The notes beneath the pieces were generated by a model, which ran no database searches, had not been told where the DNA came from, and was given only the letters and a program-made list of their open reading frames with translations. A stretch of DNA of 64,000 bases from Candidatus Omnitrophota bacterium (lineage in GTDB: Bacteria > Omnitrophota > Omnitrophia > Omnitrophales > Aquincolibacteriaceae). The stretch covers positions 74,626-138,625 of the forward strand of contig JACPXM010000020.1 of the NCBI GenBank assembly GCA_016196545.1. The letters are read 5' to 3'. A program made the translations under genes and the position numbers. Positions 24,657 to 44,368 of the stretch are shown here, piece after piece. Positions within the stretch are counted from its first letter, which is position 1, and the number at the start of each line of letters is the position of its first letter.

Positions 24657-24854
24657 ATTCAGCAAAATCCCACCCATTCAATCAAATACTCTTTCTAAAT
24701 AATTTTAATAATCATAATCGCTTTATCTATAGCAACTTGTAACAATTAAAGCCCTTAAGATTGTATTTCCCCTCATGGGATGCTACTTTTTAACAGGCGT
24801 CCAAATATCAGAATCAAAAACATCTCGAAGGGACGCCGAGGAGGCAAGATAGAA

Positions 24855-26204: not shown

Positions 26205-26211
26205 CTTCTTC

Positions 26212-28056
26212 ATGTCTTTCCTAGCGAGTCTTCCCAAGGTTCCCGACCCGGTCAAAAAAATCCCCCCGCCGGGCTTCCTCAAACGGGAAGACAATCTCTT
26301 CACACGAAAAAGCCGGGACGTGATATCCCTTTTCCGCAACTTGCCGACGGCCTATCTTTATCAGTTACTCGGAAGCGTGCTCATTCTCATTTTTTATCTG
26401 GGTTTACTTAAAACCTCCTTTTTTGTCCGTTTCGAAAATGTGATTTATGATTCTTTTTTCCGTCTCCGGCCGTCTTTGGCTTCACACCCTTCGGTTGTTT
26501 ATATCCAGATTGCCGAAGACAGCATTCAGGACATAGGTCGATGGCCCTGGCCGCGTCATTATCATGCGGTGATGACTCATATTTTGAGCGAATGGCAAGC
26601 GAAGGCCATTGTTTTTGACATGCTTTTTACCGAACCCAGCACGGAGTTTGATGACGGTGCGTTGGAAGAGGCGATGGCGACTTCCCAATCGCCGGTTTAT
26701 CTTCCCGTCCTTTTGGAAAATCGCAAAGGAGAGGAAGTCTGGGTGCATTCGCTTCCCCGTTTTGAAAGCCACGCCAAGGGCGTGGGCCATGTGAACGGCG
26801 TGCCGGATTCGGATGGTGTGATCCGGAGAATCCATCCCTATTTGCAAAGCGAAAGTGAGATTTTTCCTCATTTGGCTCTGCGGCTGGCCTATGATTATGC
26901 CGGCCTCAAACTTCCCCCAGAAAAAAAGCTGCCTTTCCCGCGGGACAGCGAGGGAAATGTGATGGTCAACTATCCTGGAAAATGGGTCCAAACCTTTAAT
27001 CATATTTCGTATCGGGACCTCCTCAAAAGTTTTCAATTGATACGCGAAGGCAAGCCGCCCATTATTTCACCGGAGGTGATCAAGGGGAAGATTTGCCTTA
27101 TCGGTTTGACGGCAACGGGGCTGTGGGATATCAAAGCAAACCCCATCGAAGCGGTTTATCCCGCCATTGGTGTGAATGGCACCGTCATTCAGAATAGTTT
27201 GCAAAATCAATTTATTTCTCCGGCCAATTACGCGCTTAATGCGATTTGCCTGGCCGTGATTGGGATGGTGGCTATTTTCTGCTTTCATCCGTTTCGTAAT
27301 TTTGTTTCTTTTTTGGCGGGGAGTGCCCTTGCGTTGGGCTGGGGGTTGACGGCCTACTTCTTTTTTGCCTGGCACGGCCGCTGGCTTTATGTTTTTCACC
27401 CCATTCTTTTAATTCTGACGTTATTTATTTTTACAGCCATTTATAATTACACCATCGGAAAAAGAGAACGGACTCACCTTTTCAAACTTGCGACGCGGGA
27501 CGGTTTGACAGGACTTTTTGTGATTCGTTATTTCCGGGAAATCTTAAACAAGGCGGTTCAAGATTCCCACATTCAAAAACAGCCGCTCTCGCTTTTAATT
27601 CTCGATATTGATGATTTTAAAAAAATCAATGATACCTACGGCCACCTCGCGGGCGATAAAGTTCTAAAAGAAGTCTCTCATATCATTCACTCCTGCTCGC
27701 GATCAAAGCGCCCCTTTACCCAAACCGATTATGTAGCGCGCTACGGCGGCGAAGAATTTATGGTCATGCTGCGAGGAGCCGCGATTACCGAGTCAGCCTT
27801 TAAGATTGCAAACCGAATCCGCAAAAAAGTCGAGGATACCGCCATCAAATGGGAGCATCATTCGCTCCGTTTTACGGTGAGCATTGGCATTGCTTCATTG
27901 GGGCCGGAGGAGGCCCTCCCGGATCCCATGGTGTCGCGGGCGGATGAAGCGCTTTACCGGGCCAAACGTGAGGGAAAAAATCGCGTTTGCCTGGAACGTT
28001 TATCACTCCATCCTTTTCCCCATCCTTCTGTTGACCAAATCCCTCCTGCGGCATAA
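26212..28056 (+). CDS. CHASE2-domain diguanylate cyclase (GGDEF)
   Basis: CHASE2 hallmark 'IGRWPWPRHYHAVM', three C-terminal TM helices, and a GGDEF domain with 'RYGGEEF'. Confidence 0.88.
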   Translation: MSFLASLPKVPDPVKKIPPPGFLKREDNLFTRKSRDVISLFRNLPTAYLYQLLGSVLILIFYLGLLKTSFFVRFENVIYDSFFRLRPSLASHPSVVYIQIAEDSIQDIGRWPWPRHYHAVMTHILSEWQAKAIVFDMLFTEPSTEFDDGALEEAMATSQSPVYLPVLLENRKGEEVWVHSLPRFESHAKGVGHVNGVPDSDGVIRRIHPYLQSESEIFPHLALRLAYDYAGLKLPPEKKLPFPRDSEGNVMVNYPGKWVQTFNHISYRDLLKSFQLIREGKPPIISPEVIKGKICLIGLTATGLWDIKANPIEAVYPAIGVNGTVIQNSLQNQFISPANYALNAICLAVIGMVAIFCFHPFRNFVSFLAGSALALGWGLTAYFFFAWHGRWLYVFHPILLILTLFIFTAIYNYTIGKRERTHLFKLATRDGLTGLFVIRYFREILNKAVQDSHIQKQPLSLLILDIDDFKKINDTYGHLAGDKVLKEVSHIIHSCSRSKRPFTQTDYVARYGGEEFMVMLRGAAITESAFKIANRIRKKVEDTAIKWEHHSLRFTVSIGIASLGPEEALPDPMVSRADEALYRAKREGKNRVCLERLSLHPFPHPSVDQIPPAA

Positions 28057-28239: not shown

Positions 28240-28326
28240 GGAGGAGTGGCAGAGTGGTCGAATGCGGCGGTCTCGAAAACCGTTAGGGCCGTAAGGTCCT
28301 CGCAGGTTCGAATCCTGCCTCCTCCG
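28240..28326 (+). tRNA. tRNA-Ser (anticodon CGA)
   Basis: Acceptor stem GGAGGAG/CTCCTCC plus discriminator G. Anticodon loop CTCGAAA. Long variable arm (class II). T-arm GCAGGTTCGAATCCTGC. CCA is not encoded. Confidence 0.93.
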
Positions 28327-30588: not shown

Positions 30589-30778
30589 TGGCCCGCTCGA
30601 GATTGTACGACATGTCGCACAATATATGTGACATTGCGACCGGCAAAATAAAAGAAGCGGCTATTGCAAAATGGAAGCAGAACCCTTGTTTACCGTATAA
30701 ATAATAGAAACAACCGTGATCAATTCAAATCATTTTTTAGCTTGTTATCGGTTTGTCTAAAACTGTTCGCACGTTACA

Positions 30779-30807
30779 TTGACATTACAGAGCGAGTATG
30801 TTATTTT
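30779..30807 (+). promoter_or_regulatory. extended -10 sigma70-type promoter inside the 5' end of the long ORF
   Basis: TTGACA (30779-30784), a 17-nt spacer ending in TGt, then TATTTT (30802-30807). If used, translation must begin downstream, at TTG 30817 or GTG 30877. Confidence 0.45.
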
Positions 30808-30876
30808 TTTTCCAATTTGAACCTTGTTTCTCTTTCCATCATCAAGAATCAGCCTAGGTTAAAGAGAAATTTTTTT

Positions 30877-33800
30877 GTGTCTTTATTTAAAGGTTTCACA
30901 AAGACCTTCATTCACCGATTCGTAGCCCTTTTGACGGCGGTTTTGTTCTCGTGCAATTCCCTTGTCTATTCCTCCGCCGTTTCCTTTCCTACAACTGAAA
31001 ATTCAGCCCTTTTTCTTAAAACTCCTGATGTGCCTTCTTCTCTTGGGAGTGTCGATGCGCTTTATCTTCCCCCCACTCCTAGCTCATTCCAGCCTTTCAT
31101 TTTAATTCAGGACGCCCATGCTCATCGCGAGGCCCAGGCGAACATTCACGGTCTATTGAATCACTTGGCCAAACAACAGGTTGTCCACGCAGTTACCGCA
31201 GAAGCCGCTTCAGGAAAAATAAATCCCCATATCTTCGATTTCTTTAAAGATTCTAAACTCAACCGCGCCGTGATTGATGGCCTGGCTGCCAAAGGCGAAC
31301 TCACCGGCGCGGAACTTTTTGCTTTGACATCTTCCCATAAAATCCCGGTCTATGGCATTGAAGATGAAGATTTATATACCGCGAGTTTTCGGTTTTTTTA
31401 TGACATCAAACAAAAACAAAAATCGAATGAAAGTATTCTTCAATCTTACCGCGGCGCGCTTTTTGATTTGGAAAAAAGGTTTTTCAACAAGGATTTAAAC
31501 CACCTTGTTCAAAAAAAGCGAGATTGGGAAGAGCGAAGGGACGAAGATCTCGATTATTTCCACGTCTTGAAAAGTTTTTCTGAAAAATATCTCAGGCTTG
31601 ATCTCTCGGACGTCCGTCATCAATTTGATTGGCCAAACTTGACGCGTTTGTTCAAAGTTGAGGAGCTGGAACAGGGAGTCCAAGGAGAAGAAACAAAAAA
31701 AGACATCGAGGTGCTCCTAAAAGAGATCGAAAAACGAGTGTACGCGCCCAAAATGAAGCGCTTTCTTTCCAAGGGATTGCGTCAGATCGAAGAGATTTCA
31801 AATCCGCGCAAATTTTTTGAAACCCTTTATGAAGAAAGCCGGCGCGCAGAAATCGTATGGGTCAATTATCCCCATTTTCTAAAATGGGCGGGGACGGTCA
31901 TTCTCCGCTCCGAGATCCAGATTCAGGGAGTGGAAAAAGAAAGGGCCAAACTGGAAGCGCGTTTATTCCGAAGATTGTCCCGCCCTGAAAAAGAAAAAAA
32001 GATTTTGGCTTTGGGCCACGATCTGGATCTTTTAAAGAGATTTTTTTCACTCGAGCTCAGTCGAGAGGATTATCACCATTATTCTAAAATCAAAAAGCGA
32101 TTGATGCCTAAAACCTTTCAGGTCCGCTTTCGTGAATTGAACCACAATTTGGAGCACCTTCCTCGGAAAACTTGGAAAGATGCAGCGCGCTTTTATCATT
32201 TAACCCTCGGGCGCGACCGCGCCTTAGTTGAAAATGCCTTGAAGATTTCTTCCTCATCTCATCAAGCCACGGTTCTTATCGCCGGCGGGTTTCACACGCC
32301 CGGTCTTGAAAAACAGCTTCGAGAAAAACAAATTCCCTATGCCGTCATTAGCCCGCGCATTCAAAATTTTGAAGACGACGGTTTTTATGAAAAGGTGATG
32401 TTGGGACAAAATACCCTCGGCGCCTGGCTTTTGACGCGGCTTGAAGCCTTACCTCCCGGCAACCTTCGAGCAAGACGCCAGGCCGTACTTTCAGAGGCCC
32501 TTTCGAAGGTCTCCCGATCCGAAATGAGAGAAGGAGTCCGTTCTTTTATCACAACCGGCTTGGCACCTCATGAAGAACTCGAGGTGCTTCGACAATTTCG
32601 AAAACAGATCGAACGAAACGATTTCCCGCTGCTGGTCATTTTTTCCGATCATCACGGGACCATTGAAAAATTAGACGCCTACATCCTCGATGCCATGCGC
32701 CGCGCCCTGCCGGACAAAGTGCCGGAATTTACATTGGATCGCCAAGAAGCCGACAAAAATCCGGAAAAGAAATTTTGGGATGTAAATGGATCTTTGGAAG
32801 AACAACTTTCATATCATGGGATAAGCCTGAATGACGACTTCGACGGAAAACTCTTTTTCGAAAATCTTGGGGATTTTATGGACCGGGGCCCAAAAGGCAT
32901 TCGTGTTTTCGAACGATCGATGGAGCTGCGCGATGCCGGTCTTTCAGAAATCGTTCTCGGAAATCATGATATTTACATCATGTTAAATCTCATGGGATTT
33001 CATCTGCCATGGTATGAAGGTTATAACTTTTATGGCTATTCGGATGTCTATGACAATAAATACGGTAATATCCAAGAGCAGGTGAGGCACTTTCGGGAAA
33101 CCCATCGCGAGACGCGTACCGCCGAGTGGTGGGCAGAGCGCCTGGCGGAATTTCGCGCTTTTCATGATCAACAGCAGAAAACATTGTGGAAGCCTTTGAA
33201 CATTTTGGTCAATGGTTGGAACGAATCCCTGGAAGAGAAAATGCCTGGGAAAGGTCTTTTCGCCCAAGTTTCAGCGAGTCTCATTACTCCCAAACAAAAA
33301 GACCTTTGGAATAAATTCCGCGGCTGGAACCTTGTTGACGTGTATACGGGCGTCAGAGCCGTTGGGGTTGTTTCCGTCCAGTGGTGGGAAAACCTTCTGG
33401 AAGATTTTGAAGAGTCGTTTACAGAAATACAAAAGCATCCTGATTATCAAGAGAACCGTCCGGCCAACCAAGCGTGGACACAAGCTATTTCTATAATGAA
33501 AAATCAAATTATTCCCCGTTTAAAACAGGATCTTCAAGGGCATCTCGAACGAGGGGAGTGGTGGTGGCGAGCTTTTGAAGCCATCCATGCCCAAAATTAC
33601 ACCTCTGCTGAATGGTTAATCATGGATTGGCTCTTTCATCCCGGCTGGGGGCCTACGGTCTTGGCCGAACTCAATGAGAGAATTAAAGACGACTCCCTAA
33701 AAGTGACGCCCGCCAATTATTTGAAAAATTCTATCTTAAAAATGATCGGGCAAACTTATCGCAATGTCTTCAAACTTCATTTGCGGGATATTTATCAAAA

Positions 33801-36800
33801 TCACGCCACGCATGCCTTTTTGCCGATCGACATGAAGACGGGCGAATTTTATTTTAAGTACCAAGGCGTTGAGTATCGCGCAAAGGGGGACTCCAATCAT
33901 CCTTCGGTATGGCAGGGGTTAAATGTCTTGGCTCAGCACATTCGTGACCCTAAACGTTCGATGAAAGAAAATTATGAGGCCCTTATTTTAATCATGAGCT
34001 GGTATTCGGATAACAACCCCATTCTCAAACCGCCGCGCGTTACTGAAGCGATCAATCAATTCGGTCCGGAGGATTTGGCGCAGGTGAATGGTTTTAATCG
34101 TTTATTTTTTGGACATATTCCTTTTCATGAATTCTATAAACTTGGCCAGGAAAAATTGGGAATCATTAGCGGCTATCAAACCGGTGGTCGGATTTTTGAT
34201 ACCGATCATGGTGCAGGCGTTAAATTCGGCGGACGCGGTGCCTTCGTTCGTGTTCAAGATGAAGTTGTCCTTCGCGGATTTGAGCATGAACGTGCCAATG
34301 GCATTAAAGATAATCCTTCTACTGTGCGGACAGTCGATGGGCCAAACGGACAAATTTCTGAGGAGGTATTATTTAGAAATCCGGGGATAAATCACGACGA
34401 TTTTTTGCCGGAATTAAGGCGCAATCTTGAAACGCGCATCACAGAACTGGAACAGCCCGTGCGTTCAGAAGTTCGAGATGAAATCCCTGCTTATATTGTC
34501 GACTTTTTAGAAAAGGAGCTCGGAATATCAGTTCAGAATCTTTCTGCAGATCAGAAAACAACGCTTGAAAAACATGTTTCCTTCTTCTCGAGTTTGAATA
34601 ACTTTCGATTTTATCCGCGTCGGGAGGTCTTTAAGCAACTTTTAGAATCTTCGAATTTTTCTATTCTGGATTCTTCTGAGAAATTCGCGACGGCAATGCT
34701 GGACAAGGGCATCTTCGATCGAGATCCGGATTCGGACATCAACGCCTATCTTCTTGGAAGCCTTCAAAAAATTTTTTCTTCCTTCCGGCCAAATAAAACT
34801 CTTTCAGAAAAAACTTTGGCGATTGGGGAAGACATGCTTAAGCATGATAGGAATTATGCCACTCAAATTTATACGGCTGAACTTTTGGGAAGTTTGGAGC
34901 CCACAGAAAAAATCATTGAAGCGCTTTTGCGCCTGGCTTCTCCCGGCATGAATAACGGCATCCGGGATAAGGCCTTCTTCAGCATGAAAGGCAATGGGAA
35001 TCGAGTGGCACCCTATTTAATTAAGCGCATCGGGATGACGGCCGATCGCCGCTCGCGCGATTATTACGTCTCTTTACTTGAAAAGGTGACGGAACCCAGC
35101 TTTCAAACTCTCGTCTGGTTTCTGGCGGGGCATCAAGATACGGCAGAAAAACTAAATGCAATTATAGAAAGTGAACCGATTGGTTTTCAGCAATGGGTTT
35201 CCTCGGCCCTTTTTATGGTTCGAGGGACGCCGAGCATTAGGCAAACTATGGATGAGCGCATCCGTCATTTGGACCTGTTCAAGGCATTTTTGGGCCGGGA
35301 AACCTTTCTGAATCTCATTCGGTTTTGGGGTTTTTCAATGGTCTCTCACTGGGCTCAAATGAAGAATGACGAATCCCAAAAAGAACTTTTTCAAATTCTT
35401 GCCGGTCTTGAACGTAAAGACCCCGCTCAATCTTCGCTTGCAGAGCTGATTCATCTTGTTCGCGCTCATCCTGAAAAATTGCGCGCCTTGCTTCTTTTGA
35501 TTACTTCCGGACATGGTTTTGATTCTGTCGGTGTTCGCGAATTGCTGGATTTAATTATTCAGAACCCCGCTCAGTCCACAGAATTAATGGCCTTTTTGAT
35601 TACTTTGCTCAGGCTTCAGCCAGTGAGTTTTAAGGAAGAGGAATTCGTTCAGGAATGGATTTCTAAATTGCTGCATAGCCCTATTGAGCCCGTCTATTAC
35701 CTTGCTCGCAAGCTGGCCATGAGCATTCCCCACCCCACGAATACCAATCCTGTGTTAGAGCAAAACATCCGGAAATTTTCAGCCGAGTTGGACGATGCCG
35801 GAAAGAATGAAAACAGACTTTTCCGTTACATTCGTCTCGAACTTCACCGCTCGCCTTCAACCGACGATCTGGATTTGGTGGCGACCATTCTCGACGTTTT
35901 GATCCGTCTACAACACCCCCATCGAGCCATGCGAATTAAAGAATCCGAGATTGACGATTATTTAGGTCATCTGGTTCGCGCGGAAGCAAAAAAAGAAGTT
36001 TATCAGGCCCTCGTTTCGCCACTTTCCCAAGGCGTTGGGCAAATTCTTAATCAGGAATTTTTGAAGGCATCGGAAAAGACGTCTTGGAGGGATTATTTCC
36101 TTGCACATGTTCCCGATTGGGAGGCGAGCCCAAGCGATGAAGCATCGCAGCCTTATTATTATGCCAAGCTCTTGATTCAGGTGCTTCAGGCCGTCCATGC
36201 TCGATATGCCTTGAATATTGAAAGGATCGCTCAAAATCTTCCTAGCGCCGTTCGTGAAAAAATCGAGCAAGGTGAAATCCTTCCTGCACTCATTGATTTA
36301 AATGAAACACGGGAAGCCAATAAAAGAATGCTTTTGGTTGCGTCTACGCTTGACCCCATAAAGGAATATTACATCAAGCGTCACCAGGCAACCGATGAAT
36401 GGGGATTTTTGGCTTATGGTTTTTATGGAAATTATAAAGAAGAGAAATTTGACCTTTTTGAACAGGACAGGCTGATTCAGACCTACACGGAAATCCTTCA
36501 AGATCGATATCTGACAAAAGAGATTCCAAAAAAAATTGAGGAAATTAGAAAGTGGGCCGAGGCTCAGAAGACGAACGGCATTCCCGAGGAATCTCCATTG
36601 CGCTCAAAGGAGCAGGTGGATCAAGCGATCCGTATCCCGTTGCAAGAGATCCTGGAAGGCCTTTATTGGTTGGTTGATGAAATGGATACAGAAGGCTTGC
36701 TTAATCAAAAGCTCGTTTCTCTCAATCGAGTTTTGCGGACAGAAAATTTTGACCTTCAGCAGGTCACCAATATTCTGACGATGATGCAAGATGAAGCCAC

Positions 36801-39800
36801 CCGACTTTATGATTTTTTTAATTTTAATTTTTCCACATTCCCGGAACATCTTGCCTTAAGTTTAGGGCGCGATCGCATCAATCCTCGTTTTTTAAAGCCT
36901 GGAGACGAGAAAAAAACAGACGAAGAATGGGCAAAGCGCGTCCGCGAAACCTTTCTCGGTGACCTTTGGGCCGATGAGCGGAAAATTTTTTACTTCAATT
37001 CGTATCTTAGTCAGCTTAGACAACTCCTGGTCGAAGGCTTATATCCTTGGAGATTTAAGTATATCCGGTTGGCCAAGGCGGCGTTGCCACTTGATCTGAT
37101 TACCGAAGAAAACGTTGATCAGCAGGGCGTCTCTGCCGTGCGAACCGGCACGAAAGCCCACGAGCTTTTTTGGCTGCGCAAAAAAGGATTACCCATTCCG
37201 CCCCTGGTGGTTCTGCCCATCGACTTGCCTGACCGCGTTAAGATTGATCCCACCAATCCTATTTTTAGGCAAAAAGTTTTGGACGCTATTCTTCATTTGG
37301 AAAAGGCCTCGGGCAAAATATTCCCGTTTCATCTCTCTGCTTTAAATGAAGAAGAAGAAAAGAAAGTGCGAGAATTTCGCGCTGCAAACCAAATTGAACC
37401 TTCCGGGCCAATGCTGAATTTTTCAACGCGTAGCGGGTCTCTAGAATCGATGCCGGGCATGATGGATACGATTTTAGACCTGCCCTTTAATGATCAAATT
37501 GTTGAAGAGCTTGTCAGTAAAGATGAAGACTTGCATTTCGTTTTGGACACGTACCGGCGTTTTTTAGCCTCTTTTGGAGCGGCTCATTATGGCATGGATC
37601 GCCGCGCTTTTTCTGACATCATCGATGCCATGAAACAGGAAGTGACCAACCGCAAAGCAAAAAAATCAGAAATCACGATCGCGGAGTTTGAGGTTGAAGA
37701 TTTACAAAAAGTTGTAAATAAATTTAAGCAATACATCAGTGTGAGACATGCTGATTTTTTAAAAATAGATCCTTTCTCGCAGGTGACGCATGCTGTCAAA
37801 GCCATTTATGATTCTTGGGAAAGTGAAGGGGCTAAAGAATTTCGAGAGAAATTTGGCCTTTCGCCACGCTGGAGAACGGGCGTTACGCTTCAAGCCATGG
37901 TATTCGGTAACGCAGGTTTGGATTCCGGAACAGGCGTTATTTTTTCTAGCGATCCTGAATCCGAAATCTACAGTCCTTATGGAACATGGAAATGGAATTC
38001 TCAAGGAGAGGATGTGGTGGGAGGGTTGGTAGGGATTTTTCAACCCCTTAACAAGCTTCATGGAGAAAATAGCATCGAAGTGGTTCATTCTGAATTTTTT
38101 GATGAAATTACGGACATTGCCCGAGCCATTCAAAGATTAGGAAAAGTTCCTCAGGATATAGAAATCACAAGAGAGCAGGGGAAAAATTGGGTTCTTCAAA
38201 CCCGCGCTTTAGTCAATACGGGACACGGAATTAAGAAAACCATTCGACTTGATAAACTGCCGGAAGGAAGCGTTGCCAAGGTCGCCAGTCAAGGCGTCCC
38301 CGTGTCGCCTAACGCAGCGGTAGGAAGATTGCTGGATGCTCGAAATATGACAGGTCTAGAGCTCAGGTCTGAAGTGAATAAGTTAAGGAAATGGATGAAT
38401 GATCATGGAGAGGAAACGTTGGACATTATCCTTGCCTTTGACTACGTCACCGATCAAGACGCGGCAGAGAAATTATATCTAGAAAATGTCAAAGGCCTCA
38501 TTAACTCGAAAGTGGGAATCAGCACTCATGCCAGTTTGGTTGCAGGGCGCCTGGGGCTCGCGTATGTGAGCCAGGTCGACATTGTTTTTGCTTCCGAGGA
38601 TAAGGATGCGACGTTAGGGGGTAAGAAAATCGATTTTGGTATAAATAGTCCTATTATTAGCATCGATGGGTATTCGCCGTCAAAGAGTGAGACAAGCGGT
38701 CAGGTCCTATGGGGAGAACTGCCTTTTGATTATGCTGTGACCACTCCTTTGCCAGCAAATGGCAATGGAAACGGCCGCTCGGAGGTTCGCCCCCTTTCAT
38801 TCCCGGCGCGGGTGGCGATTAGTCTTGGGGCATACCGGATTAATAAAAAGGGAATAGTTTCGGATATTCTGGAATCCAATTTTGATGATTCTCTGGAAGT
38901 GGCAGTGAATACAGTGCACAATCGAATTTTCGATGCCTATTTGCGAGGTCTCATCGGCAATCCGAATATCTCTTTGACCGACCTTTACGGTGTTGAAAGT
39001 GTGGAACGTTTTTTCTCCTCTCTTCATAATCCTTTTCACGGCCGGTTCCCGGCGTCCTCTTTGAACTTGAAAGAAGAAAACGGTCAGGCCGTCCTGGAAA
39101 TTAATGGTCATGAAATCAGAATTCATGAACAGGTTCCCGAGTCCGCGACGTTGCGGCGATTTCAAACCGAAGTTCTAATCGATCTAAGTAATATGAATCT
39201 TACCGACGAGAACCCTGGCTTTCGGGCAGCGCGACTCAGAGAACTCCAAAAAGAGGCCGAGCTTAAACACGTCATTGATTTTCGAGGTGATGAAGACCCT
39301 ACAGAGGATCCCGATGCTTCTTATCATGCCTTGGTTTCTCCTTTGACGCTTGCCTCAGCCCACATTCTTCGTGTCGTGGAAAAGAAGTTTAATGGCGATT
39401 TCGATTTTGTCAGCGGTTTACTCGGCGCTCGGCCGATCACCGGCGATTCGGGAAAAATCAATTTTCGCAAATCAAGCCTGCTCGAATATGACATCGCTAA
39501 GGGAGCTGGAAGTGCCCTGTTGTCCCTCATTCCAAAGCAGGATTCCCGTTTTAAAGCAGTGGCCAAAGAACTTAAAGCTATTAAGTCCGACAAACATCTG
39601 ACGGATAAGGAAAAGGAGTCGAAAAGACAGAAGCTTATTTATCAAAGCGTGAACCAGCATTTTGAAAAAGCAGCGCAGGAAACTCCCGATATCCTGCGTT
39701 ACGCCGACGAGGAGCATTTGAGCTCTCTGCTCGTGATTCGGGATTCTCAAGTTGTCGTTTTTGATAGTCAAGCCACGGACATCCGTGAAAACGGACAGGT

Positions 39801-42282
39801 GGAGCTCTATTTTCATTTTAGTGATGCGGGTTATGCAGCGGCGCTCAATCGTTTGATTAAAGAAAACCAGACCCAAGAGCAGCAAGAAAAATTTTCTGGA
39901 GGCACGATCCCCGCGAATACTACAACGAGAATTGCTAAACAAGTGAAGGAAGGAGACGAGATTCGCTTTGCCATTATTGGAGCGCGCGGTCGAATCGGCA
40001 AACAGCTTCACCAATTACTGACCAGTGATCCGAATTATGTGCCCGTCTTCTATCTGGGAGTTCAAGACCTTGACACTTTTTTACTGCAATTTCGTGAAGA
40101 CCTTTCGCAAGGACCTATGCATACCGTTCGAGGCGATGAGATTTATGAACTTGAAAAAGGGACCGGGGAAAATAAAGACAAGCTCCGCTTGCGAAACAAG
40201 AAAACAGGGGAATATTTGGCCGATTCTTACGGCAAGACGATTTTAATCTCTTATTACCATATCCAACAAAGGAAGGATGAAGTCGGCGATGCCTTTGAAA
40301 GGCGCATTCGTGAAACATTGGGAGATAAGAAGATTGACCAAGTCGAGGTGATTTTTAATGCTTCAGGTTTTGCGCTCGATAAAAATGACAACTATTATAA
40401 TGCGTTCAAAGATGGTAAAAACTTAAAACTTGTTCACTTCACTTCGCCGGCTAAAGGGGAGGTGGATGTTACGATTGTGCGTGGAGTCAACGAAGATAAA
40501 CTGGTTCATTTAGTTGAATCCGAACCTTCTAAAACACTTTTTTGTTCCGATGCGTCGTGCACAACCACCGCGCTTGGCCGTGCCTTAATCGAATTGGACC
40601 GATTTCTCCAGACCTCTGAACAACAAGTCGAGTATATTCGCTTTGTCACTCACCATAGCATGACGCCGAGTCAAGGTGAACTCTATGGAGCTCCTTCGGC
40701 GGGGAAATCTTTGCGCACTGCCAATGATCCGAAAATGGCTGCTGTGTTAGAAAGTACGGGAGCCAATAAAGTACTTGCTGAAGTTTGGCCCAGCTTCAAA
40801 GGAAGCCTCGGGGGAGTTTCACACCGAGATGGAAATTATGGTGGGTCGATTGTCTTTGTCCACGCCTTGGTCCGGTCCAAGGCGGGTGTTTATCCCACAG
40901 CAGATTCCATTAACCGACATTTTGAGGCCTTGGCCAAAACCCCTGCGCTAAAAGGGATTTTGTCGTTTGATCCTCATGCCTCATCGACTGCTCAAATTGT
41001 AGGAAACCGAACAGCTTCGATTTTTCTTCCTCAATTTACTCGAATAGAAACAGGTGAGGAAGGAGCGGCGGTGACTATTGCCTTGGGGTATGACAATGAA
41101 GCCGGTTATGCTCAAGCTGTCGTTGACATCGATAAGCTTGCCGCTCTTGTTCGTCGAGGTGGTATTTCATCGGGAAGCCCCTCCGTCCAATCTGCTCCTC
41201 AACCTGTACCCCCCGCTTTTCTTGAGCCGGTTCGCTCCTTGGCTCTTCGGCTTCAGGCCTATGAGCACCAGCTCGACTCGGATGCCTCTTCGATTGCATT
41301 CATTCAGGTTTTGGAAAAAAAGGCCTCGAGTTTCGGAAATTATAGTGAACCGCATCATTTGCTAGAGATTTTAGATCAAACCATTATCCATTTAAGCCGT
41401 GCCTGGGAAGCCACTGAAAATAAAATCCAGAGCACGATCCTCGACGATTTGTTAGATACTTATTCTGAACTCGAACGTCTTGCGAATGGCAAGACCCGTT
41501 CCGAAACGCGCTCGCAGGAACGAAAGATCGAAAAATGGGAAAAAAAATTGCAAGGGTTCCGCTCCAAGCTTCGGGAATCGGACATGGTCGTTGCGGAACT
41601 TGCGGCATTTAGGTTTGTGTCTCCGGAATTGATCAGGTTCCGCGATTTCTTTGAAGAGCAACTGCTAAAGGTACCGGGTCCCCCTACTTCGGGGACCCGG
41701 TACCGACTGCTTTTGACCGAGGCGACATCTTCCCAAACACCCCGCATTGTCGTTATCATGAACATCAATGGCCGGTTTCCTCAGTTGAATACTGAGGATT
41801 TCAAGGCTATGGAACTTGCAGAAGGCAGCCGCGTGGTTGTATTGGATTCCACCATGAGTCAATCCTCAGCATGGGACGGGTACTCTAAACTCGCCTTTGC
41901 GGAGAGCTTCCGCATCGCCACTGCGATTCCCAATCTTGCTGAACTCAAACGAATTCTAAGTCGATTTCCAGGGCATGTCCCTGTCCTTCTTTTTCCATCC
42001 GGCTTTTCGGAAGCCGTGGCGGATCAATATAAAAGTGCATCGGCGGAAACCGGATTTGCGGGTATTGTGCCGAATGGCATCAATGCCCGCCGTGCCTTTT
42101 CCTATTTGGTAGGACATCATCTTCCGGCCAGTGTCATTCGCGAAGTGCCAGATCAATTTTTAGGAATGCGGAATAACGCAAAAGGTCTTTCTCCTATTTG
42201 GGTCCCGTTTGGGTTGGAACGCGCCTTCACGGGCTGGATGGCTCAATTTTTAAATTCTCGTCTTGCCGAAACCTCTGCCTAA
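30877..42282 (+). CDS. giant multidomain protein: signal-anchor, ChaN/TraB-like domain, class-3-FBPase-like metallophosphoesterase, helical repeats, PPDK-type ATP-grasp plus phosphohistidine domains, GAPDH-like domain, unknown C-terminal domain
   Basis: The frame is open without a stop from TTG 30664 to TAA 42282. I prefer GVG-type start GTG 30877, which is downstream of the predicted promoter and gives a Lys/Arg-rich n-region plus hydrophobic 'FVALLTAVLFSCNSLVYSSA'. Domain motifs are listed in the domain features below. Confidence 0.85.
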   Translation: MSLFKGFTKTFIHRFVALLTAVLFSCNSLVYSSAVSFPTTENSALFLKTPDVPSSLGSVDALYLPPTPSSFQPFILIQDAHAHREAQANIHGLLNHLAKQQVVHAVTAEAASGKINPHIFDFFKDSKLNRAVIDGLAAKGELTGAELFALTSSHKIPVYGIEDEDLYTASFRFFYDIKQKQKSNESILQSYRGALFDLEKRFFNKDLNHLVQKKRDWEERRDEDLDYFHVLKSFSEKYLRLDLSDVRHQFDWPNLTRLFKVEELEQGVQGEETKKDIEVLLKEIEKRVYAPKMKRFLSKGLRQIEEISNPRKFFETLYEESRRAEIVWVNYPHFLKWAGTVILRSEIQIQGVEKERAKLEARLFRRLSRPEKEKKILALGHDLDLLKRFFSLELSREDYHHYSKIKKRLMPKTFQVRFRELNHNLEHLPRKTWKDAARFYHLTLGRDRALVENALKISSSSHQATVLIAGGFHTPGLEKQLREKQIPYAVISPRIQNFEDDGFYEKVMLGQNTLGAWLLTRLEALPPGNLRARRQAVLSEALSKVSRSEMREGVRSFITTGLAPHEELEVLRQFRKQIERNDFPLLVIFSDHHGTIEKLDAYILDAMRRALPDKVPEFTLDRQEADKNPEKKFWDVNGSLEEQLSYHGISLNDDFDGKLFFENLGDFMDRGPKGIRVFERSMELRDAGLSEIVLGNHDIYIMLNLMGFHLPWYEGYNFYGYSDVYDNKYGNIQEQVRHFRETHRETRTAEWWAERLAEFRAFHDQQQKTLWKPLNILVNGWNESLEEKMPGKGLFAQVSASLITPKQKDLWNKFRGWNLVDVYTGVRAVGVVSVQWWENLLEDFEESFTEIQKHPDYQENRPANQAWTQAISIMKNQIIPRLKQDLQGHLERGEWWWRAFEAIHAQNYTSAEWLIMDWLFHPGWGPTVLAELNERIKDDSLKVTPANYLKNSILKMIGQTYRNVFKLHLRDIYQNHATHAFLPIDMKTGEFYFKYQGVEYRAKGDSNHPSVWQGLNVLAQHIRDPKRSMKENYEALILIMSWYSDNNPILKPPRVTEAINQFGPEDLAQVNGFNRLFFGHIPFHEFYKLGQEKLGIISGYQTGGRIFDTDHGAGVKFGGRGAFVRVQDEVVLRGFEHERANGIKDNPSTVRTVDGPNGQISEEVLFRNPGINHDDFLPELRRNLETRITELEQPVRSEVRDEIPAYIVDFLEKELGISVQNLSADQKTTLEKHVSFFSSLNNFRFYPRREVFKQLLESSNFSILDSSEKFATAMLDKGIFDRDPDSDINAYLLGSLQKIFSSFRPNKTLSEKTLAIGEDMLKHDRNYATQIYTAELLGSLEPTEKIIEALLRLASPGMNNGIRDKAFFSMKGNGNRVAPYLIKRIGMTADRRSRDYYVSLLEKVTEPSFQTLVWFLAGHQDTAEKLNAIIESEPIGFQQWVSSALFMVRGTPSIRQTMDERIRHLDLFKAFLGRETFLNLIRFWGFSMVSHWAQMKNDESQKELFQILAGLERKDPAQSSLAELIHLVRAHPEKLRALLLLITSGHGFDSVGVRELLDLIIQNPAQSTELMAFLITLLRLQPVSFKEEEFVQEWISKLLHSPIEPVYYLARKLAMSIPHPTNTNPVLEQNIRKFSAELDDAGKNENRLFRYIRLELHRSPSTDDLDLVATILDVLIRLQHPHRAMRIKESEIDDYLGHLVRAEAKKEVYQALVSPLSQGVGQILNQEFLKASEKTSWRDYFLAHVPDWEASPSDEASQPYYYAKLLIQVLQAVHARYALNIERIAQNLPSAVREKIEQGEILPALIDLNETREANKRMLLVASTLDPIKEYYIKRHQATDEWGFLAYGFYGNYKEEKFDLFEQDRLIQTYTEILQDRYLTKEIPKKIEEIRKWAEAQKTNGIPEESPLRSKEQVDQAIRIPLQEILEGLYWLVDEMDTEGLLNQKLVSLNRVLRTENFDLQQVTNILTMMQDEATRLYDFFNFNFSTFPEHLALSLGRDRINPRFLKPGDEKKTDEEWAKRVRETFLGDLWADERKIFYFNSYLSQLRQLLVEGLYPWRFKYIRLAKAALPLDLITEENVDQQGVSAVRTGTKAHELFWLRKKGLPIPPLVVLPIDLPDRVKIDPTNPIFRQKVLDAILHLEKASGKIFPFHLSALNEEEEKKVREFRAANQIEPSGPMLNFSTRSGSLESMPGMMDTILDLPFNDQIVEELVSKDEDLHFVLDTYRRFLASFGAAHYGMDRRAFSDIIDAMKQEVTNRKAKKSEITIAEFEVEDLQKVVNKFKQYISVRHADFLKIDPFSQVTHAVKAIYDSWESEGAKEFREKFGLSPRWRTGVTLQAMVFGNAGLDSGTGVIFSSDPESEIYSPYGTWKWNSQGEDVVGGLVGIFQPLNKLHGENSIEVVHSEFFDEITDIARAIQRLGKVPQDIEITREQGKNWVLQTRALVNTGHGIKKTIRLDKLPEGSVAKVASQGVPVSPNAAVGRLLDARNMTGLELRSEVNKLRKWMNDHGEETLDIILAFDYVTDQDAAEKLYLENVKGLINSKVGISTHASLVAGRLGLAYVSQVDIVFASEDKDATLGGKKIDFGINSPIISIDGYSPSKSETSGQVLWGELPFDYAVTTPLPANGNGNGRSEVRPLSFPARVAISLGAYRINKKGIVSDILESNFDDSLEVAVNTVHNRIFDAYLRGLIGNPNISLTDLYGVESVERFFSSLHNPFHGRFPASSLNLKEENGQAVLEINGHEIRIHEQVPESATLRRFQTEVLIDLSNMNLTDENPGFRAARLRELQKEAELKHVIDFRGDEDPTEDPDASYHALVSPLTLASAHILRVVEKKFNGDFDFVSGLLGARPITGDSGKINFRKSSLLEYDIAKGAGSALLSLIPKQDSRFKAVAKELKAIKSDKHLTDKEKESKRQKLIYQSVNQHFEKAAQETPDILRYADEEHLSSLLVIRDSQVVVFDSQATDIRENGQVELYFHFSDAGYAAALNRLIKENQTQEQQEKFSGGTIPANTTTRIAKQVKEGDEIRFAIIGARGRIGKQLHQLLTSDPNYVPVFYLGVQDLDTFLLQFREDLSQGPMHTVRGDEIYELEKGTGENKDKLRLRNKKTGEYLADSYGKTILISYYHIQQRKDEVGDAFERRIRETLGDKKIDQVEVIFNASGFALDKNDNYYNAFKDGKNLKLVHFTSPAKGEVDVTIVRGVNEDKLVHLVESEPSKTLFCSDASCTTTALGRALIELDRFLQTSEQQVEYIRFVTHHSMTPSQGELYGAPSAGKSLRTANDPKMAAVLESTGANKVLAEVWPSFKGSLGGVSHRDGNYGGSIVFVHALVRSKAGVYPTADSINRHFEALAKTPALKGILSFDPHASSTAQIVGNRTASIFLPQFTRIETGEEGAAVTIALGYDNEAGYAQAVVDIDKLAALVRRGGISSGSPSVQSAPQPVPPAFLEPVRSLALRLQAYEHQLDSDASSIAFIQVLEKKASSFGNYSEPHHLLEILDQTIIHLSRAWEATENKIQSTILDDLLDTYSELERLANGKTRSETRSQERKIEKWEKKLQGFRSKLRESDMVVAELAAFRFVSPELIRFRDFFEEQLLKVPGPPTSGTRYRLLLTEATSSQTPRIVVIMNINGRFPQLNTEDFKAMELAEGSRVVVLDSTMSQSSAWDGYSKLAFAESFRIATAIPNLAELKRILSRFPGHVPVLLFPSGFSEAVADQYKSASAETGFAGIVPNGINARRAFSYLVGHHLPASVIREVPDQFLGMRNNAKGLSPIWVPFGLERAFTGWMAQFLNSRLAETSA
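31090..32370 (+). other. domain in giant ORF: ChaN/TraB/Tiki/erythromycin-esterase-like (tentative)
   Basis: Bracketed by 'PFILIQDAHAHREAQ' and 'ATVLIAGGFHTPGLEKQLREKQIPYAVI'. These resemble the N-terminal (G/D)xH and C-terminal GxxH-x-G motifs of that superfamily. Confidence 0.35.
32620..34330 (+). other. domain in giant ORF: calcineurin-type metallophosphoesterase with class-3 FBPase (Fbp/YydE, FBPase_2)-like motif order
   Basis: 'VIFSDHHG' (32644), 'LGDFMDRGP' (32869), 'LGNHD' (32959), 'THAFLPIDMKTGEF', 'FGHIPFH' (34108), 'DTDHGAGVKFGG'. B. subtilis Fbp has the same order: SDLHGE, GDIYDRGP, WGNHD, IHGCIPVDENG, NGHTPV, IDGGFSKAY. Confidence 0.65.
37126..38215 (+). other. domain in giant ORF: PPDK/PEP-synthase N-terminal ATP-grasp (nucleotide-binding) domain
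   Basis: 'STRSGSLESMPGMMDTILDLPFND' (PPDK has SVRSGARxSMPGMMDTVLNLGLN). 'LQAMVFGNAGLDSGTGVIFSSDP'. 'NSQGEDVVGG'. 'NWVLQTR'. Confidence 0.85.
38280..38720 (+). other. domain in giant ORF: PEP-utilising enzyme mobile (swivelling phosphohistidine) domain
   Basis: 'SPNAAVGRLL' and 'SKVGISTHASLVAGRLGLAYV' (PPDK has GGMTSHAAVVARGMGKPCV). The His codon is at 38527-38529. 'ISIDGYSPSKSETSGQV'. Confidence 0.8.
39961..41150 (+). other. domain in giant ORF: glyceraldehyde-3-phosphate dehydrogenase-like domain
   Basis: 'IRFAIIGARGRIGKQL' (GAPDH has INGFGRIGR). 'SDASCTTTALG' with the Cys codon at 40558. 'FVTHHSMT' (TTVHAxT). 'ALGYDNEAGYAQ' (WYDNEWGYS). Confidence 0.8.
41670..41704. repeat. type-2 palindromic element inside the giant CDS
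   Basis: GGTACCGGGTCCCC / 7-nt loop / GGGGACCCGGTACC, with perfect 14-bp arms. Read in frame it encodes VPGPPTSGTRY. Confidence 0.9.
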
Positions 42283-42470: not shown

Positions 42471-43211
42471 ATGCCGAAGCGCCGCATTTTGATTTTGGAG
42501 AAGAAAGCAAGCCGGTGGCCAAAATTCCTTGAGGAATTTTTTGAGGACACACCCTCGGAATTAAAAGTCACGGAGGACGCCGCCCTCGCCGGAGAAATTT
42601 TAGACCGTCTTCATCCCGACCTTGTGTTTTTTAATCACGCGCTCGTTTCCCCGGCATTTTTACAGAAGGTCCGGGTCCATCGACAGACGCGATCCGAGCT
42701 TCGTTTTACGGCGATTGGGGCTGTAAAAAATGCGAACCCCTCTTCTTTGGAAGCCGATATGGCCTTTGAAGAGCCGCCCGCGTTTTTGGAATTTCAAAAA
42801 CGGATGATCCGTGAACTTCCCATGCCGGAGAAATTGTATTTGCTTGTCGTCGATGACGACCCGGAAATCGGAGCCATGATCCGTGATTTTCTCGAGGGGA
42901 GGACGCATCCGGCCTTTGAGATTGCCACTGCGGAAAACGGAAAAAAAGGCCTGGAATCCATTTTACGGCGAAAACCCGATGTGCTGGTCATGGATGTGAA
43001 AATGCCGGAAATGGACGGCCGTGAACTTTACCGGAGAATCCGCGGCCAGCAACTCATGCTTCCCACCATTATTTTTTTCGATCCGATTTCCGGCGCGGAA
43101 ATGGCGGAAATCCGAAAATATGGAAGACCGGCCGTGGTGGACAAAAGTTCCCGCCACGCCTCGCTTCCGGACCTTACGGCCCTCATCTTAAAAATGGCCT
43201 ATTTTGGATGA
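42471..43211 (+). CDS. response regulator with degenerate N-terminal receiver-like domain plus canonical receiver; no output domain
   Basis: C-terminal REC motifs 'LLVVDDDPEIG', 'DVLVMDVKMPEMDG' and a 'DKS' Lys region. The N-terminal half ('RILILEKK...DLVFFN') has receiver-like spacing but lacks the acidic pocket. Confidence 0.75.
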   Translation: MPKRRILILEKKASRWPKFLEEFFEDTPSELKVTEDAALAGEILDRLHPDLVFFNHALVSPAFLQKVRVHRQTRSELRFTAIGAVKNANPSSLEADMAFEEPPAFLEFQKRMIRELPMPEKLYLLVVDDDPEIGAMIRDFLEGRTHPAFEIATAENGKKGLESILRRKPDVLVMDVKMPEMDGRELYRRIRGQQLMLPTIIFFDPISGAEMAEIRKYGRPAVVDKSSRHASLPDLTALILKMAYFG

Positions 43212-44368
43212 AAGAGGACAGAGGACTGAGTCAATCGATCTCTTGGATTCACCTTTTCTGTCTTCTGTTTTCTGTCGTCTGCCCTCTATTCTTTAACGGC
43301 TGCGCATTTCTTATTCGCCGTCCCTCGTATTCGGTGAAAGCCCCGGCTGGCGCCGAGTCTCCTTTTCGCGGGGTTTATCACATTCACAGCGAATTTTCCT
43401 CGGATTCCAAGGCCTCTCTGAGGCAAGTTCTTAAAACGGGTGAAAAATCGAAACTCGATTTTGTGCTCCTCACCGATCACAACAACATGCGTGCCAAAGA
43501 GGCCTACGAATTGATGAAGTGGCCGGCGGAGGGAGGCCGACCGAAGCAGCCCCTTTTGATCACGGGCATTGAAATCTCCGCGCCGGACGGCCACATGACG
43601 GCCTTCGGCATTTCGGAGCCCCCACCGAAAGGTATGAACTCTCAAGATTTGATTGACTGGATTCATCAAAAGGGAGGATATTTGGTGTTGGCGCATCCAA
43701 TTTGTCAAAGACGGCCGTGGACGAATTGGGAAATTCAGGGCTTTGACGGGCTTGAGGTTTATAATTTCGCGCATACATTTTATCCGGAAAATAAATTGAC
43801 GCTCACGCTTAAGGCGATGCTCTTCACGCCCAAAATGTTTCTCAAGCATTATCAGAAAATTAATCCCTCCTGGCGCCAGAAATGGGACGAGCTTCTTATG
43901 ACCGAGAAGGTATCGGCCTTTGCGGCCAATGACGCCCACCTTCACTGGAAATGGCTGGGGATTGCTCCGGAAAGTTACATCCTTCAATTTCAGTCGGTGA
44001 ATCATTATGTCTTCTCAGAGGTCTTTGAGGAACGGGCCCTGCTTGAGGCGCTTGGCGAAGGGAGAAGTTTTTTTGCCTTTGAAACGCGCGGCGAGGCCCG
44101 TGATTTTCAGTTCAGGGCAGAGGCAGGGGGAAAGGAATTTTCGATGGGAGAAGAGGTGCCTGGCTCCCGTGGAGAACCGGCCACCGTCAGGTTTTTGGTT
44201 TCCGTGCCTCAAGACGGGGAGCTTCGGCTCCTTCATCGAGGAGAAATCATTGCGCAAGCCGAGGGACGCGCACTGACACATTCCGTAGAAAAACCGGGTG
44301 CCTACCGCGTGGAAGTGTATAAAAAAGACAAACCCTGGATTATCTCCAATCCGATTTATGTGGAATAA
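43208..44368 (+). CDS. PHP-domain (CehA/McbA-like) metal-dependent phosphoesterase, membrane/lipid anchored
   Basis: ATGA overlap with the upstream gene. 'GVYHIHSEFSSDS' and 'FVLLTDHNN' are PHP motifs. N-terminal hydrophobic segment ending 'FFNGC'. Confidence 0.7.
   Translation: MKEDRGLSQSISWIHLFCLLFSVVCPLFFNGCAFLIRRPSYSVKAPAGAESPFRGVYHIHSEFSSDSKASLRQVLKTGEKSKLDFVLLTDHNNMRAKEAYELMKWPAEGGRPKQPLLITGIEISAPDGHMTAFGISEPPPKGMNSQDLIDWIHQKGGYLVLAHPICQRRPWTNWEIQGFDGLEVYNFAHTFYPENKLTLTLKAMLFTPKMFLKHYQKINPSWRQKWDELLMTEKVSAFAANDAHLHWKWLGIAPESYILQFQSVNHYVFSEVFEERALLEALGEGRSFFAFETRGEARDFQFRAEAGGKEFSMGEEVPGSRGEPATVRFLVSVPQDGELRLLHRGEIIAQAEGRALTHSVEKPGAYRVEVYKKDKPWIISNPIYVE

Follow-up and report, generated by a model that had tools for sequence, protein, structure and literature searches.

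A divergent, probably catalytic GAPDH-like domain fused behind a degenerate paralogue in a giant modular protein of Candidatus Omnitrophota

In the Candidatus Omnitrophota bacterium represented by assembly GCA_016196545.1, a stretch of 64,000 nucleotides from contig JACPXM010000020.1 (positions 74,626 to 138,625 of the forward strand; this whole stretch is hereafter the window, and all positions refer to it) contains a giant open reading frame (ORF) at 30664-42282 on the plus strand, with 3872 codons counted from the first TTG. A database copy (P0004) is identical to the giant protein and comprises 3801 aa, its start lying 71 codons later at 30877. The original prediction had located a GAPDH-like (glyceraldehyde-3-phosphate dehydrogenase-like) domain at 39961-41150, near the C-terminus of this protein, and its presence there was confirmed by sequence, profile and fold comparison. 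Frame +1 is stop-free across this interval and contains the strings IIGARGRIGK, SDASCTTTALG, VTHHSMT, HRDG and GYDNEAGY, so that the predicted frame and strings were correct; the domain, which is full-length, is slightly wider than the predicted limits (39958-41163, plus strand; aa 3099-3500). Directly upstream lies a second, degenerate but full-length GAPDH fold that had been missed, here called the pseudo-GAPDH (38791-39873, plus strand; aa 2710-3070, about 360 residues). The same architecture is found in the orthologues L001 and L002, which derive from two metagenome-assembled genome (MAG) contigs, and in P0005. Because the two MAG contigs bear orthologues in the same order, one of them with shared downstream genes, the giant ORF is real and not an assembly artefact.

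The NCBIfam model TIGR01534 (GAPDH-I) matches the giant protein with an E-value of 3.4e-35. The score is 121.8 bits for the whole protein and 112.5 bits for the domain alone, which does not reach the equivalog cut-off of 367.2 bits; the domain is therefore not to be called simply 'GAPDH'. In Pfam, which describes a type I GAPDH by PF00044 plus PF02800, Gp_dh_C scores 35.6 bits against a gathering score of 24.4, and Gp_dh_N has no match at E<=1 in the giant protein. The N-domain does align in profile-profile and structural comparisons, and the orthologue P0009 does match Gp_dh_N. A phmmer search against the PDB matched 135 GAPDH chains, the best being 1cer from T. aquaticus (E 8.8e-18). Further, hhalign comparison of a ten-orthologue profile with a canonical GAPDH profile gave a probability of 100% and an E-value of 1.4e-48; the alignment is 327 columns long and spans the cofactor domain as well as the catalytic one. 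Both GAPDH modules were modelled together with AlphaFold2 from an input alignment built without rows taken from the loci, and the model reached a predicted local distance difference test score (pLDDT) of 78 and a predicted template modelling score (pTM) of 0.73 over 800 residues. When the model was compared with the PDB by Foldseek, the top matches were all GAPDHs, with target-normalised template modelling (TM) scores of 0.80-0.83. The domain thus has the same two-domain fold as the type I GAPDHs (TIGR01534; 1cer and 1gd1 of B. stearothermophilus), to which its identity is about 22-26%. The type I enzyme is a free subunit of about 335 aa, whereas the domain in the giant protein is fused behind a dead paralogue in a chain of 3.8 thousand residues.

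Comparison with the GAPDH, erythrose-4-phosphate dehydrogenase (Epd) and aspartate-semialdehyde dehydrogenase families, as proposed in the original prediction, showed GAPDH to be clearly the best match. The Epd models (TIGR01532/NF010058) score 24.6-29.5 bits, with a cut-off of about 530 bits, against 112-122 bits for GAPDH, and no aspartate-semialdehyde dehydrogenase model was among the NCBIfam and Pfam matches at E<=1. The proposed phylogenetic placement was made by neighbour joining, and it put the domain on a deep, separate branch. The live domains of the tandem proteins form one clade in 49 of 50 bootstraps, their sister is formed by the live domains of three other giant proteins, and both groups lie well outside the canonical type I GAPDHs. 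No canonical gap gene or other GAPDH was found elsewhere in the window.

A word-indexed protein search for relatives was nearly blank (three ordinary GAPDHs and, from the family, only P0007), and the family was recovered by an exhaustive HMMER search. No segment of the giant protein is better conserved than the GAPDH-like one, with 50-65% identity as against 23-50% for most other segments. Active-site residues were tabulated for the window protein and nine orthologues of 28-65% identity. The retention of catalytic residues homologous to C149 and H176, suspected from the sequence strings, was borne out by HMMER alignment to 1cer and holds in all ten proteins. Cys149 corresponds to the Cys of SDASCTTT (aa 3299; 40558-40560) and His176 to the second His of VTHHSMT (aa 3331; 40654-40656), while the Thr that follows in this motif falls on Thr179 (aa 3334). 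Along with Cys149, His176 and Thr179, the residues Ser148, Thr150, Gly209, Arg231, Asn313, Glu314 and Tyr317 are invariant in 10/10; position 208 is Thr in nine proteins and Ser in one. Asn313 (aa 3478), Glu314 and Tyr317 belong to the WYDNEWGY motif, of which they are kept in GYDNEAGY. Judged from this alignment, the catalytic residues, most anion-site residues and those that position the nicotinamide are under strong purifying selection.

In bacterial enzymes, Arg195 and Asp181 are residues of the anion (Ps/Pi) sites, together with Thr179, Arg231, Ser148, Thr150, Thr208 and Gly209. When these sites were scored, T179, R231, S148, T150, T208, G209 and Arg194 were found to be kept, and Arg195 is replaced by Thr, Asp181 by Ser and Arg197 by Asn. 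Asn152 is likewise replaced by Thr, and 'RVPT' by 'RDGN'. The earlier reading of 'HRDG' at the 'RVPT' position was off by one in register: 'LRVPT' is matched by 'HRDGN', and since the R of 'HRDG' aligns with Arg231 (aa 3388), the Ps-site arginine is kept.

The cofactor region departs from the NAD-type pattern. The glycine loop GARGRIG at aa 3106 reads GxxGxxG in place of the canonical GxGxxG, and GxxGRIG is found in 10/10 orthologues. Asp32 is replaced by Gly (aa 3131), again in 10/10, and in the AlphaFold2 model this Gly closes strand betaB on its C-terminal side, which is where NAD-dependent Rossmann folds carry their ribose-binding carboxylate. A dinucleotide fold is present, but the NAD-type fingerprint of GxGxxG plus an acidic Asp32 is absent, and the specificity probably differs. 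As every orthologue has the GxxGxxG loop and a Gly at the position of the NADP-excluding Asp32, the sequences suggest that the domain is NADP(H)-tolerant. Among the best structural matches are 1dbv, a B. stearothermophilus GAPDH engineered towards NADP by the changes D32G/L187A/P188S, and GapB of B. subtilis (8wwz), an anabolic NADP-dependent GAPDH. The Asp32 carboxylate is absent from the domain as it is from the NADP-accepting or anabolic GAPDHs (8wwz, 1dbv and chloroplast GapA/B). For the giant-protein domain an NADP(H) preference is a prediction, and the S-loop, whose residues would contact the 2'-phosphate, is modelled at low confidence.

An insertion of about 50 aa between the Rossmann start and the catalytic Cys had also been predicted. 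The net gain is 49 residues (193 versus 144), close to that estimate; it is not one insertion but at least six short ones, chiefly between reference residues 55 and 80, with smaller ones after 142 and 167. The S-loop is longer by three residues and, at a pLDDT below 50, is the sole poorly modelled part of the domain.

The pseudo-GAPDH was associated with the GAPDH family by profile, hidden Markov model (HMM) and structure. Its family profile aligns to canonical GAPDH by hhalign with a probability of 99.35% and an E-value of 6.4e-21 over 302 columns, the canonical GAPDH HMM matches its C-terminal half (i-E 1.3e-4), and AlphaFold2 gives it the expected alternation of strands and helices. The Cys149 position holds Pro or another non-nucleophile in every orthologue (VSPLT, ASPLT, ATPVT and others; VSPLT in the window), and in the core clade Arg takes the place of His176. 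There is no glycine loop, little is left of the S-loop or of the TGAAK region, and conservation is lacking at the Arg231 position. The module is nevertheless the second best-conserved segment of the giant protein (42-52% identity), and it occurs together with the live module in all ten tandem proteins. Since the two-module model reaches a pTM of 0.73 over its whole length, a defined packing of the modules against each other is inferred, which suggests that the live and dead copies form a covalent pseudo-dimer. A Cys-less GAPDH copy also lies upstream in P0018, from the sister clade of the tandem proteins, so that at least one of the three proteins there has such a copy.

The remainder of the giant ORF, all on the plus strand, is built of further modules separated by a short punctuation motif, R-[SA]-E-[VLM]-R. 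The N-terminus at 30877-30990 resembles a Sec signal peptide, MSLFKGFTKTFIHR-FVALLTAVLFSCNSLVY-SSA/VS, as judged by inspection and hydropathy, and no further hydrophobic segment was seen by hydropathy in the rest of the protein. It is followed by an N-terminal 'bookend' domain of about 500 aa (30961-32514), which has no Pfam or NCBIfam match and is common to many giant proteins, and by a first RSEMR motif (32515-32529; aa 618-622). A metallophosphoesterase-like module of 640 aa comes next (32530-34461), with the motifs DHH, GDxxDRG (as GDFMDRG) and GNHD. Its matches are marginal (Pfam Metallophos, E 0.045; ApaH, E 0.0012; PDB 4j6o, E 0.014); the P0005 counterpart shares 64% identity with it, and the module is also present in P0038 and P0059. 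Its identification as a class III (Firmicute) fructose-1,6-bisphosphatase was considered and is unsupported, as PF06874 gave no match at E<=1, and BLAST against a B. subtilis Fbp sequence recovered the generic GDxxDRG...GNHD motif only (E 0.002). Beyond an RSEVR motif (34462-34476; aa 1267-1271) lies a region of about 860 aa, provisionally labelled 'helical' (34477-37053), with no family match but conserved in the orthologues. A PPDK-type (pyruvate phosphate dikinase-type) ATP-grasp domain and phosphohistidine swivel motif (37054-38763) and another RSEVR motif (38776-38790; aa 2705-2709) precede the pseudo-GAPDH. Downstream of the live domain are a tail conserved in the closest orthologue only (41164-41496), a relaxed motif, RSETR (41497-41511; aa 3612-3616), and a C-terminal 'bookend' alpha/beta domain of about 200 aa that ends in ETSA (41512-42279) and is also common to many giant proteins. 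AlphaFold2 models this last domain confidently as an alpha/beta fold (pLDDT 85.5), with no fold match in the PDB (best E 0.02, TM below 0.35). It was also considered as a protease or known secretion domain and rejected, having no conserved catalytic residues and no PDB sequence match.

The bookends were found, by exhaustive HMMER search and local domain mapping, to be shared by many giant proteins that differ in their cargo. All proteins with the C-terminal bookend end in [SA]A-COOH. The cargo ranges from a phosphoesterase module only (P0038) to a PPDK-like module with a GAPDH-like domain and two CsrA domains (P0021) and to WD40, GlpX-type FBPase, methyltransferase and hexokinase domains (P0015). 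Other GAPDH-bearing metagenomic giants join long runs of glycolytic or gluconeogenic steps: four GAPDH domains fused to PGK (P0012), cupin GPI, pseudo-GAPDH, GAPDH, TIM and PGK in one chain (P0018), and TIM, PGK, GAPDH and FBP aldolase/phosphatase (P0050). By inspection, 21 of 21 giant proteins start with a basic stretch, 15-20 hydrophobic residues and a small-x-small motif, often reading WA/AP. Such a start is odd for proteins rich in NAD(P)- and ATP-dependent enzymes. If the giant protein were exported, NAD(P), inorganic phosphate and ATP would not be at hand, unless it acted in another cell or the sequence served as an anchor.

The punctuation motif is a feature of these giants. Three strict copies occur in the window protein in addition to the relaxed one, and 5-11 in several relatives, against a shuffle expectation of 0.01-0.07. 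Of the 155 proteins examined, 19 contain the motif, with 69 copies in total and up to 11 per protein against an expectation of about 0.03, and each of the 19 is a giant of this family or a fragment of one; motif-bearing relatives include L001, L002, P0015, P0016, P0021, P0059 and P0103. Every instance in the window protein, P0015 and P0021 lies between recognised domains and none inside one, and position -1 favours small residues. A role as a nucleotide signal (a Shine-Dalgarno sequence with an internal ATG, GTG or TTG start) was rejected, as the codons CGN TCN GAR NTN CGN vary synonymously, including AGC versus TCN. This synonymous variation shows that selection acts on the motif peptide. The sole copy outside the giant ORF, among 15.7 thousand residues of window ORFs, is an RSELR in the response regulator encoded just downstream. 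At positions 1814-11728 of L002, six of the seven copies are an identical 15-mer, CGCGCCGAGGTGCGG (RAEVR), while the codons of the window and L001 differ. Relatives without the shared end domains have recurrent linkers of their own, as seen by eye: PRGGAP in P0035 and P0090, and A[RK]DGG in P0061.

The copies of the motif may be processing or docking sites. A bolder reading, which we regard as rather unlikely, is that the giant ORF encodes a polyprotein: a Sec-type leader would export or anchor it, and cleavage at R-[SA]-E-[VLM]-R would free sugar-phosphate enzymes, including an approximately 100-kDa NADP(H)-using, single-chain heterodimer of pseudo-GAPDH and GAPDH. If true, this would provide the cleavage points missing in a 2023 study of Omnitrophota giant proteins, and enzymes of core carbon metabolism would then be put to use by a predatory or episymbiotic cell beyond the limits of its cytoplasm.

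The module upstream of the tandem was also followed up. The original prediction had supposed a phosphotransfer module there, and a PPDK ATP-grasp domain and a His-swivel motif were indeed found, with matches to PDB PPDKs at E 1.3e-42. The ATP-grasp domain matches TIGR01828 at E 8.7e-61 (model positions 66-358 of 865) as well as PF01326. The swivel match is weak, but the His motif GISTH2622ASLVAGR aligns to PPDKs (His2622 codon, 38527-38529). No match to the C-terminal phosphoenolpyruvate (PEP)/pyruvate-binding domain was found in the giant protein by Pfam, NCBIfam or comparison with PDB PPDKs, so that the third of the three parts of a PPDK (ATP-grasp, swivel and PEP/pyruvate domain) is absent. 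The pseudo-GAPDH and an RSEVR motif, both overlooked previously, stand between the dikinase-like module and the live domain. The dikinase-like module directly precedes the tandem in 7/7 members of the core clade (the window protein, L001, L002, P0005, P0006, P0008 and the truncated P0007, which starts with the tail of the swivel region). The distant members P0010 and P0011 have the tandem and no PPDK-like module, and for this reason the adjacency could be simple inheritance.

The GAPDH-like domain is probably a divergent, catalytically competent member of the phosphorylating GAPDH family, as far as the sequence comparisons indicate. With a triose phosphate as substrate, it would pass through a thiohemiacetal to a thioacyl-enzyme, the simplest reaction being the interconversion of glyceraldehyde-3-phosphate and 1,3-bisphosphoglycerate, and would probably accept NADP(H), as anabolic GAPDHs do. 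It would not be a free homotetramer subunit but would be paired covalently with its dead upstream paralogue ('one live, one dead') and inherited with it as a unit, the tandem being one cargo module of a modular giant protein beside the metallophosphoesterase-like and PPDK-like dikinase modules. Several observations weigh against this. The TIGR01534 score is far under the equivalog cut-off, Gp_dh_N is not matched, Arg195, Asp181 and Arg197 are all replaced, the protein has a signal-peptide-like start, and the packing of the pseudo-dimer is read from the pTM. Further, substrate or phosphate handling may differ, since the S-loop is longer and modelled at a pLDDT below 50. The same chemistry might thus serve another substrate or outcome, either on a different phosphorylated aldehyde or without phosphorylation, as in erythrose-4-phosphate dehydrogenase. 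The deep branch apart from canonical type I GAPDH, the changes at Arg195, Asp181, Asn152 and 'RVPT', the longer S-loop and the low equivalog score would all fit such a change. However, both anion sites are mostly intact (S148, T150, T208, G209, T179, R231), the Epd models fall well short of the GAPDH models (25-29 against 112-122 bits), and every companion domain in the related giants belongs to an enzyme of the triose and hexose phosphate pathway; a shift of this kind is judged distinctly unlikely. It is very unlikely that the tandem is non-catalytic and serves an exported giant for structure, binding or adhesion, like the moonlighting surface GAPDHs of streptococci, with its catalytic residues a relic. 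The signal-peptide-like N-terminus would agree with such a role, as would the extracellular placement of Omnitrophota giant-protein enzyme domains in published work, the presence of streptococcal surface dehydrogenase among the structural matches, and the clear loss of catalysis in one of the two copies. A relic, however, would hardly keep its catalytic and cofactor-positioning residues invariant even in orthologues of 28-35% identity, while the pseudo-copy shows relaxed constraint, nor would the GAPDH-like domain be the most conserved part of the protein. These two alternatives stay under consideration mainly because the S-loop is divergent, Arg195 is changed and the protein starts like one with a signal peptide.

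The idea, already raised in the original prediction, that phosphorylation and reduction are coupled is also considered unlikely. The ATP-grasp domain would charge the swivel His with phosphate, which would then be passed to a carboxylate, for example that of 3-phosphoglycerate, for which the pseudo-GAPDH might be the binding site; the acyl phosphate would be reduced immediately by the GAPDH-like domain, which would constitute a PGK-independent, AMP-forming route from 3-phosphoglycerate to glyceraldehyde-3-phosphate. The attraction of this route is that the dikinase-like module, with its PPDK nucleotide domain and conserved swivel His motif, lacks the normal acceptor domain, that no PGK domain occurs in the tandem proteins (the other GAPDH-bearing giants P0012, P0018 and P0050 have one), and that the module order is kept in all seven core-clade members. 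In addition, the dikinase-like module and the tandem have no strict R[SA]E[VLM]R between them in most orthologues. Dikinase-type modules with other acceptors exist in rifampicin phosphotransferase and phenylphosphate synthase, which resemble the upstream module in having an ATP-grasp domain and a swivel His without the PEP/pyruvate domain; no homology to their acceptor domains was seen in the upstream module. Against the coupling stand the two distant tandem proteins without any PPDK-like module, the RSEVR between the two modules in the window protein, and the pseudo-GAPDH itself, which has neither the canonical anion-site residues nor a recognisable phosphate site. In addition, adjacency within a vertically related clade is weak evidence.

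Enzyme-laden giant proteins of Omnitrophota have been described before. A 2023 preprint (bioRxiv 10.1101/2023.11.21.568195) reports TIM, GPI, FBPase, PGM, FBA and PPDK domains in 'Archaeovorin' proteins, which are predicted to be extracellular; post-translational cleavage is suspected there and the cleavage points are stated to be unknown. In a 2026 preprint (10.64898/2026.06.07.730766), Omnitrophota proteins of 10 kaa (thousand residues) or more include a class named 'multi-enzyme metabolic cluster'. In these giants, as in the window protein, many enzyme domains tile one chain led by a signal peptide or transmembrane segment; the enzyme domains given for them are TIM, GPI, FBPase, PGM, FBA, hexokinase/ROK and PPDK. 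The published studies treat giants from 10,000 aa upwards (from 30,000 in the 2023 paper), whereas the window protein has 3,801-3,872 aa and is thus shorter than that class. Within the accessible portions, neither preprint describes GAPDH domains in giants, PF02800, PF00044 or PF01326, polyproteins, a pseudo-GAPDH tandem, shared end domains or the motif, and literature searches for the pseudo-GAPDH tandem or the punctuation motif found nothing relevant. To the extent of these sources, giant enzyme-laden proteins are already known in this phylum and the GAPDH tandem and the motif are not previously reported.

Natural glycolytic fusions include PGK-TIM of Thermotoga maritima and TPI-GAPDH of stramenopiles. 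Like the giants, they place neighbouring triose-phosphate steps on one polypeptide. They are two-enzyme cytosolic proteins, whereas the window GAPDH is paired with a pseudo-GAPDH in a modular giant that has a signal-peptide-like start and whose relatives combine as many as five enzymes of the pathway.

Further study would be most rewarding for the pseudo-GAPDH tandem, the punctuation motif and the shared end domains. With this family, GAPDH joins the enzyme repertoire of giant proteins from uncultivated bacteria, as do PGK, TIM, GPI, FBP aldolase/phosphatase, hexokinase and CsrA through its relatives. GAPDH ranks among the most strongly conserved and most thoroughly understood enzymes. In the family, a deep GAPDH branch persists only as a covalent pair of live and dead copies inside giant, apparently exported, modular proteins, and the tandem is a natural setting in which to ask how far the active site of a GAPDH depends on the neighbouring subunit. 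The motif and the shared end domains provide handles on the choice between one chain and a polyprotein, as candidate cleavage or docking sites and as defined, expressible units.

Downstream of the giant ORF lies the response-regulator gene (42471-43211, plus strand), in which RSELR stands upstream of the receiver domain (aa 125-227) and which is syntenic in L001. The gene order giant, regulator, alpha/beta hydrolase and ceramidase-like gene (minus strand) is kept in L001; a PHP-domain gene at 43208-44368 is specific to the window when compared with that order. The window is otherwise ordinary chromosome, with fpg, aguAB, an inositol-3-phosphate synthase homologue, hflKC, a trpE/pabB-family gene, purH, folC, a class II ribonucleotide reductase gene, dnaX and recR. 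Two FecR-domain proteins and a CHASE2-GGDEF diguanylate cyclase are encoded at 22548-28056, in the stretch that separates the class II ribonucleotide reductase gene from dnaX. A single tRNA gene (28240-28326), the sole Rfam match in the window, is located just upstream of dnaX.

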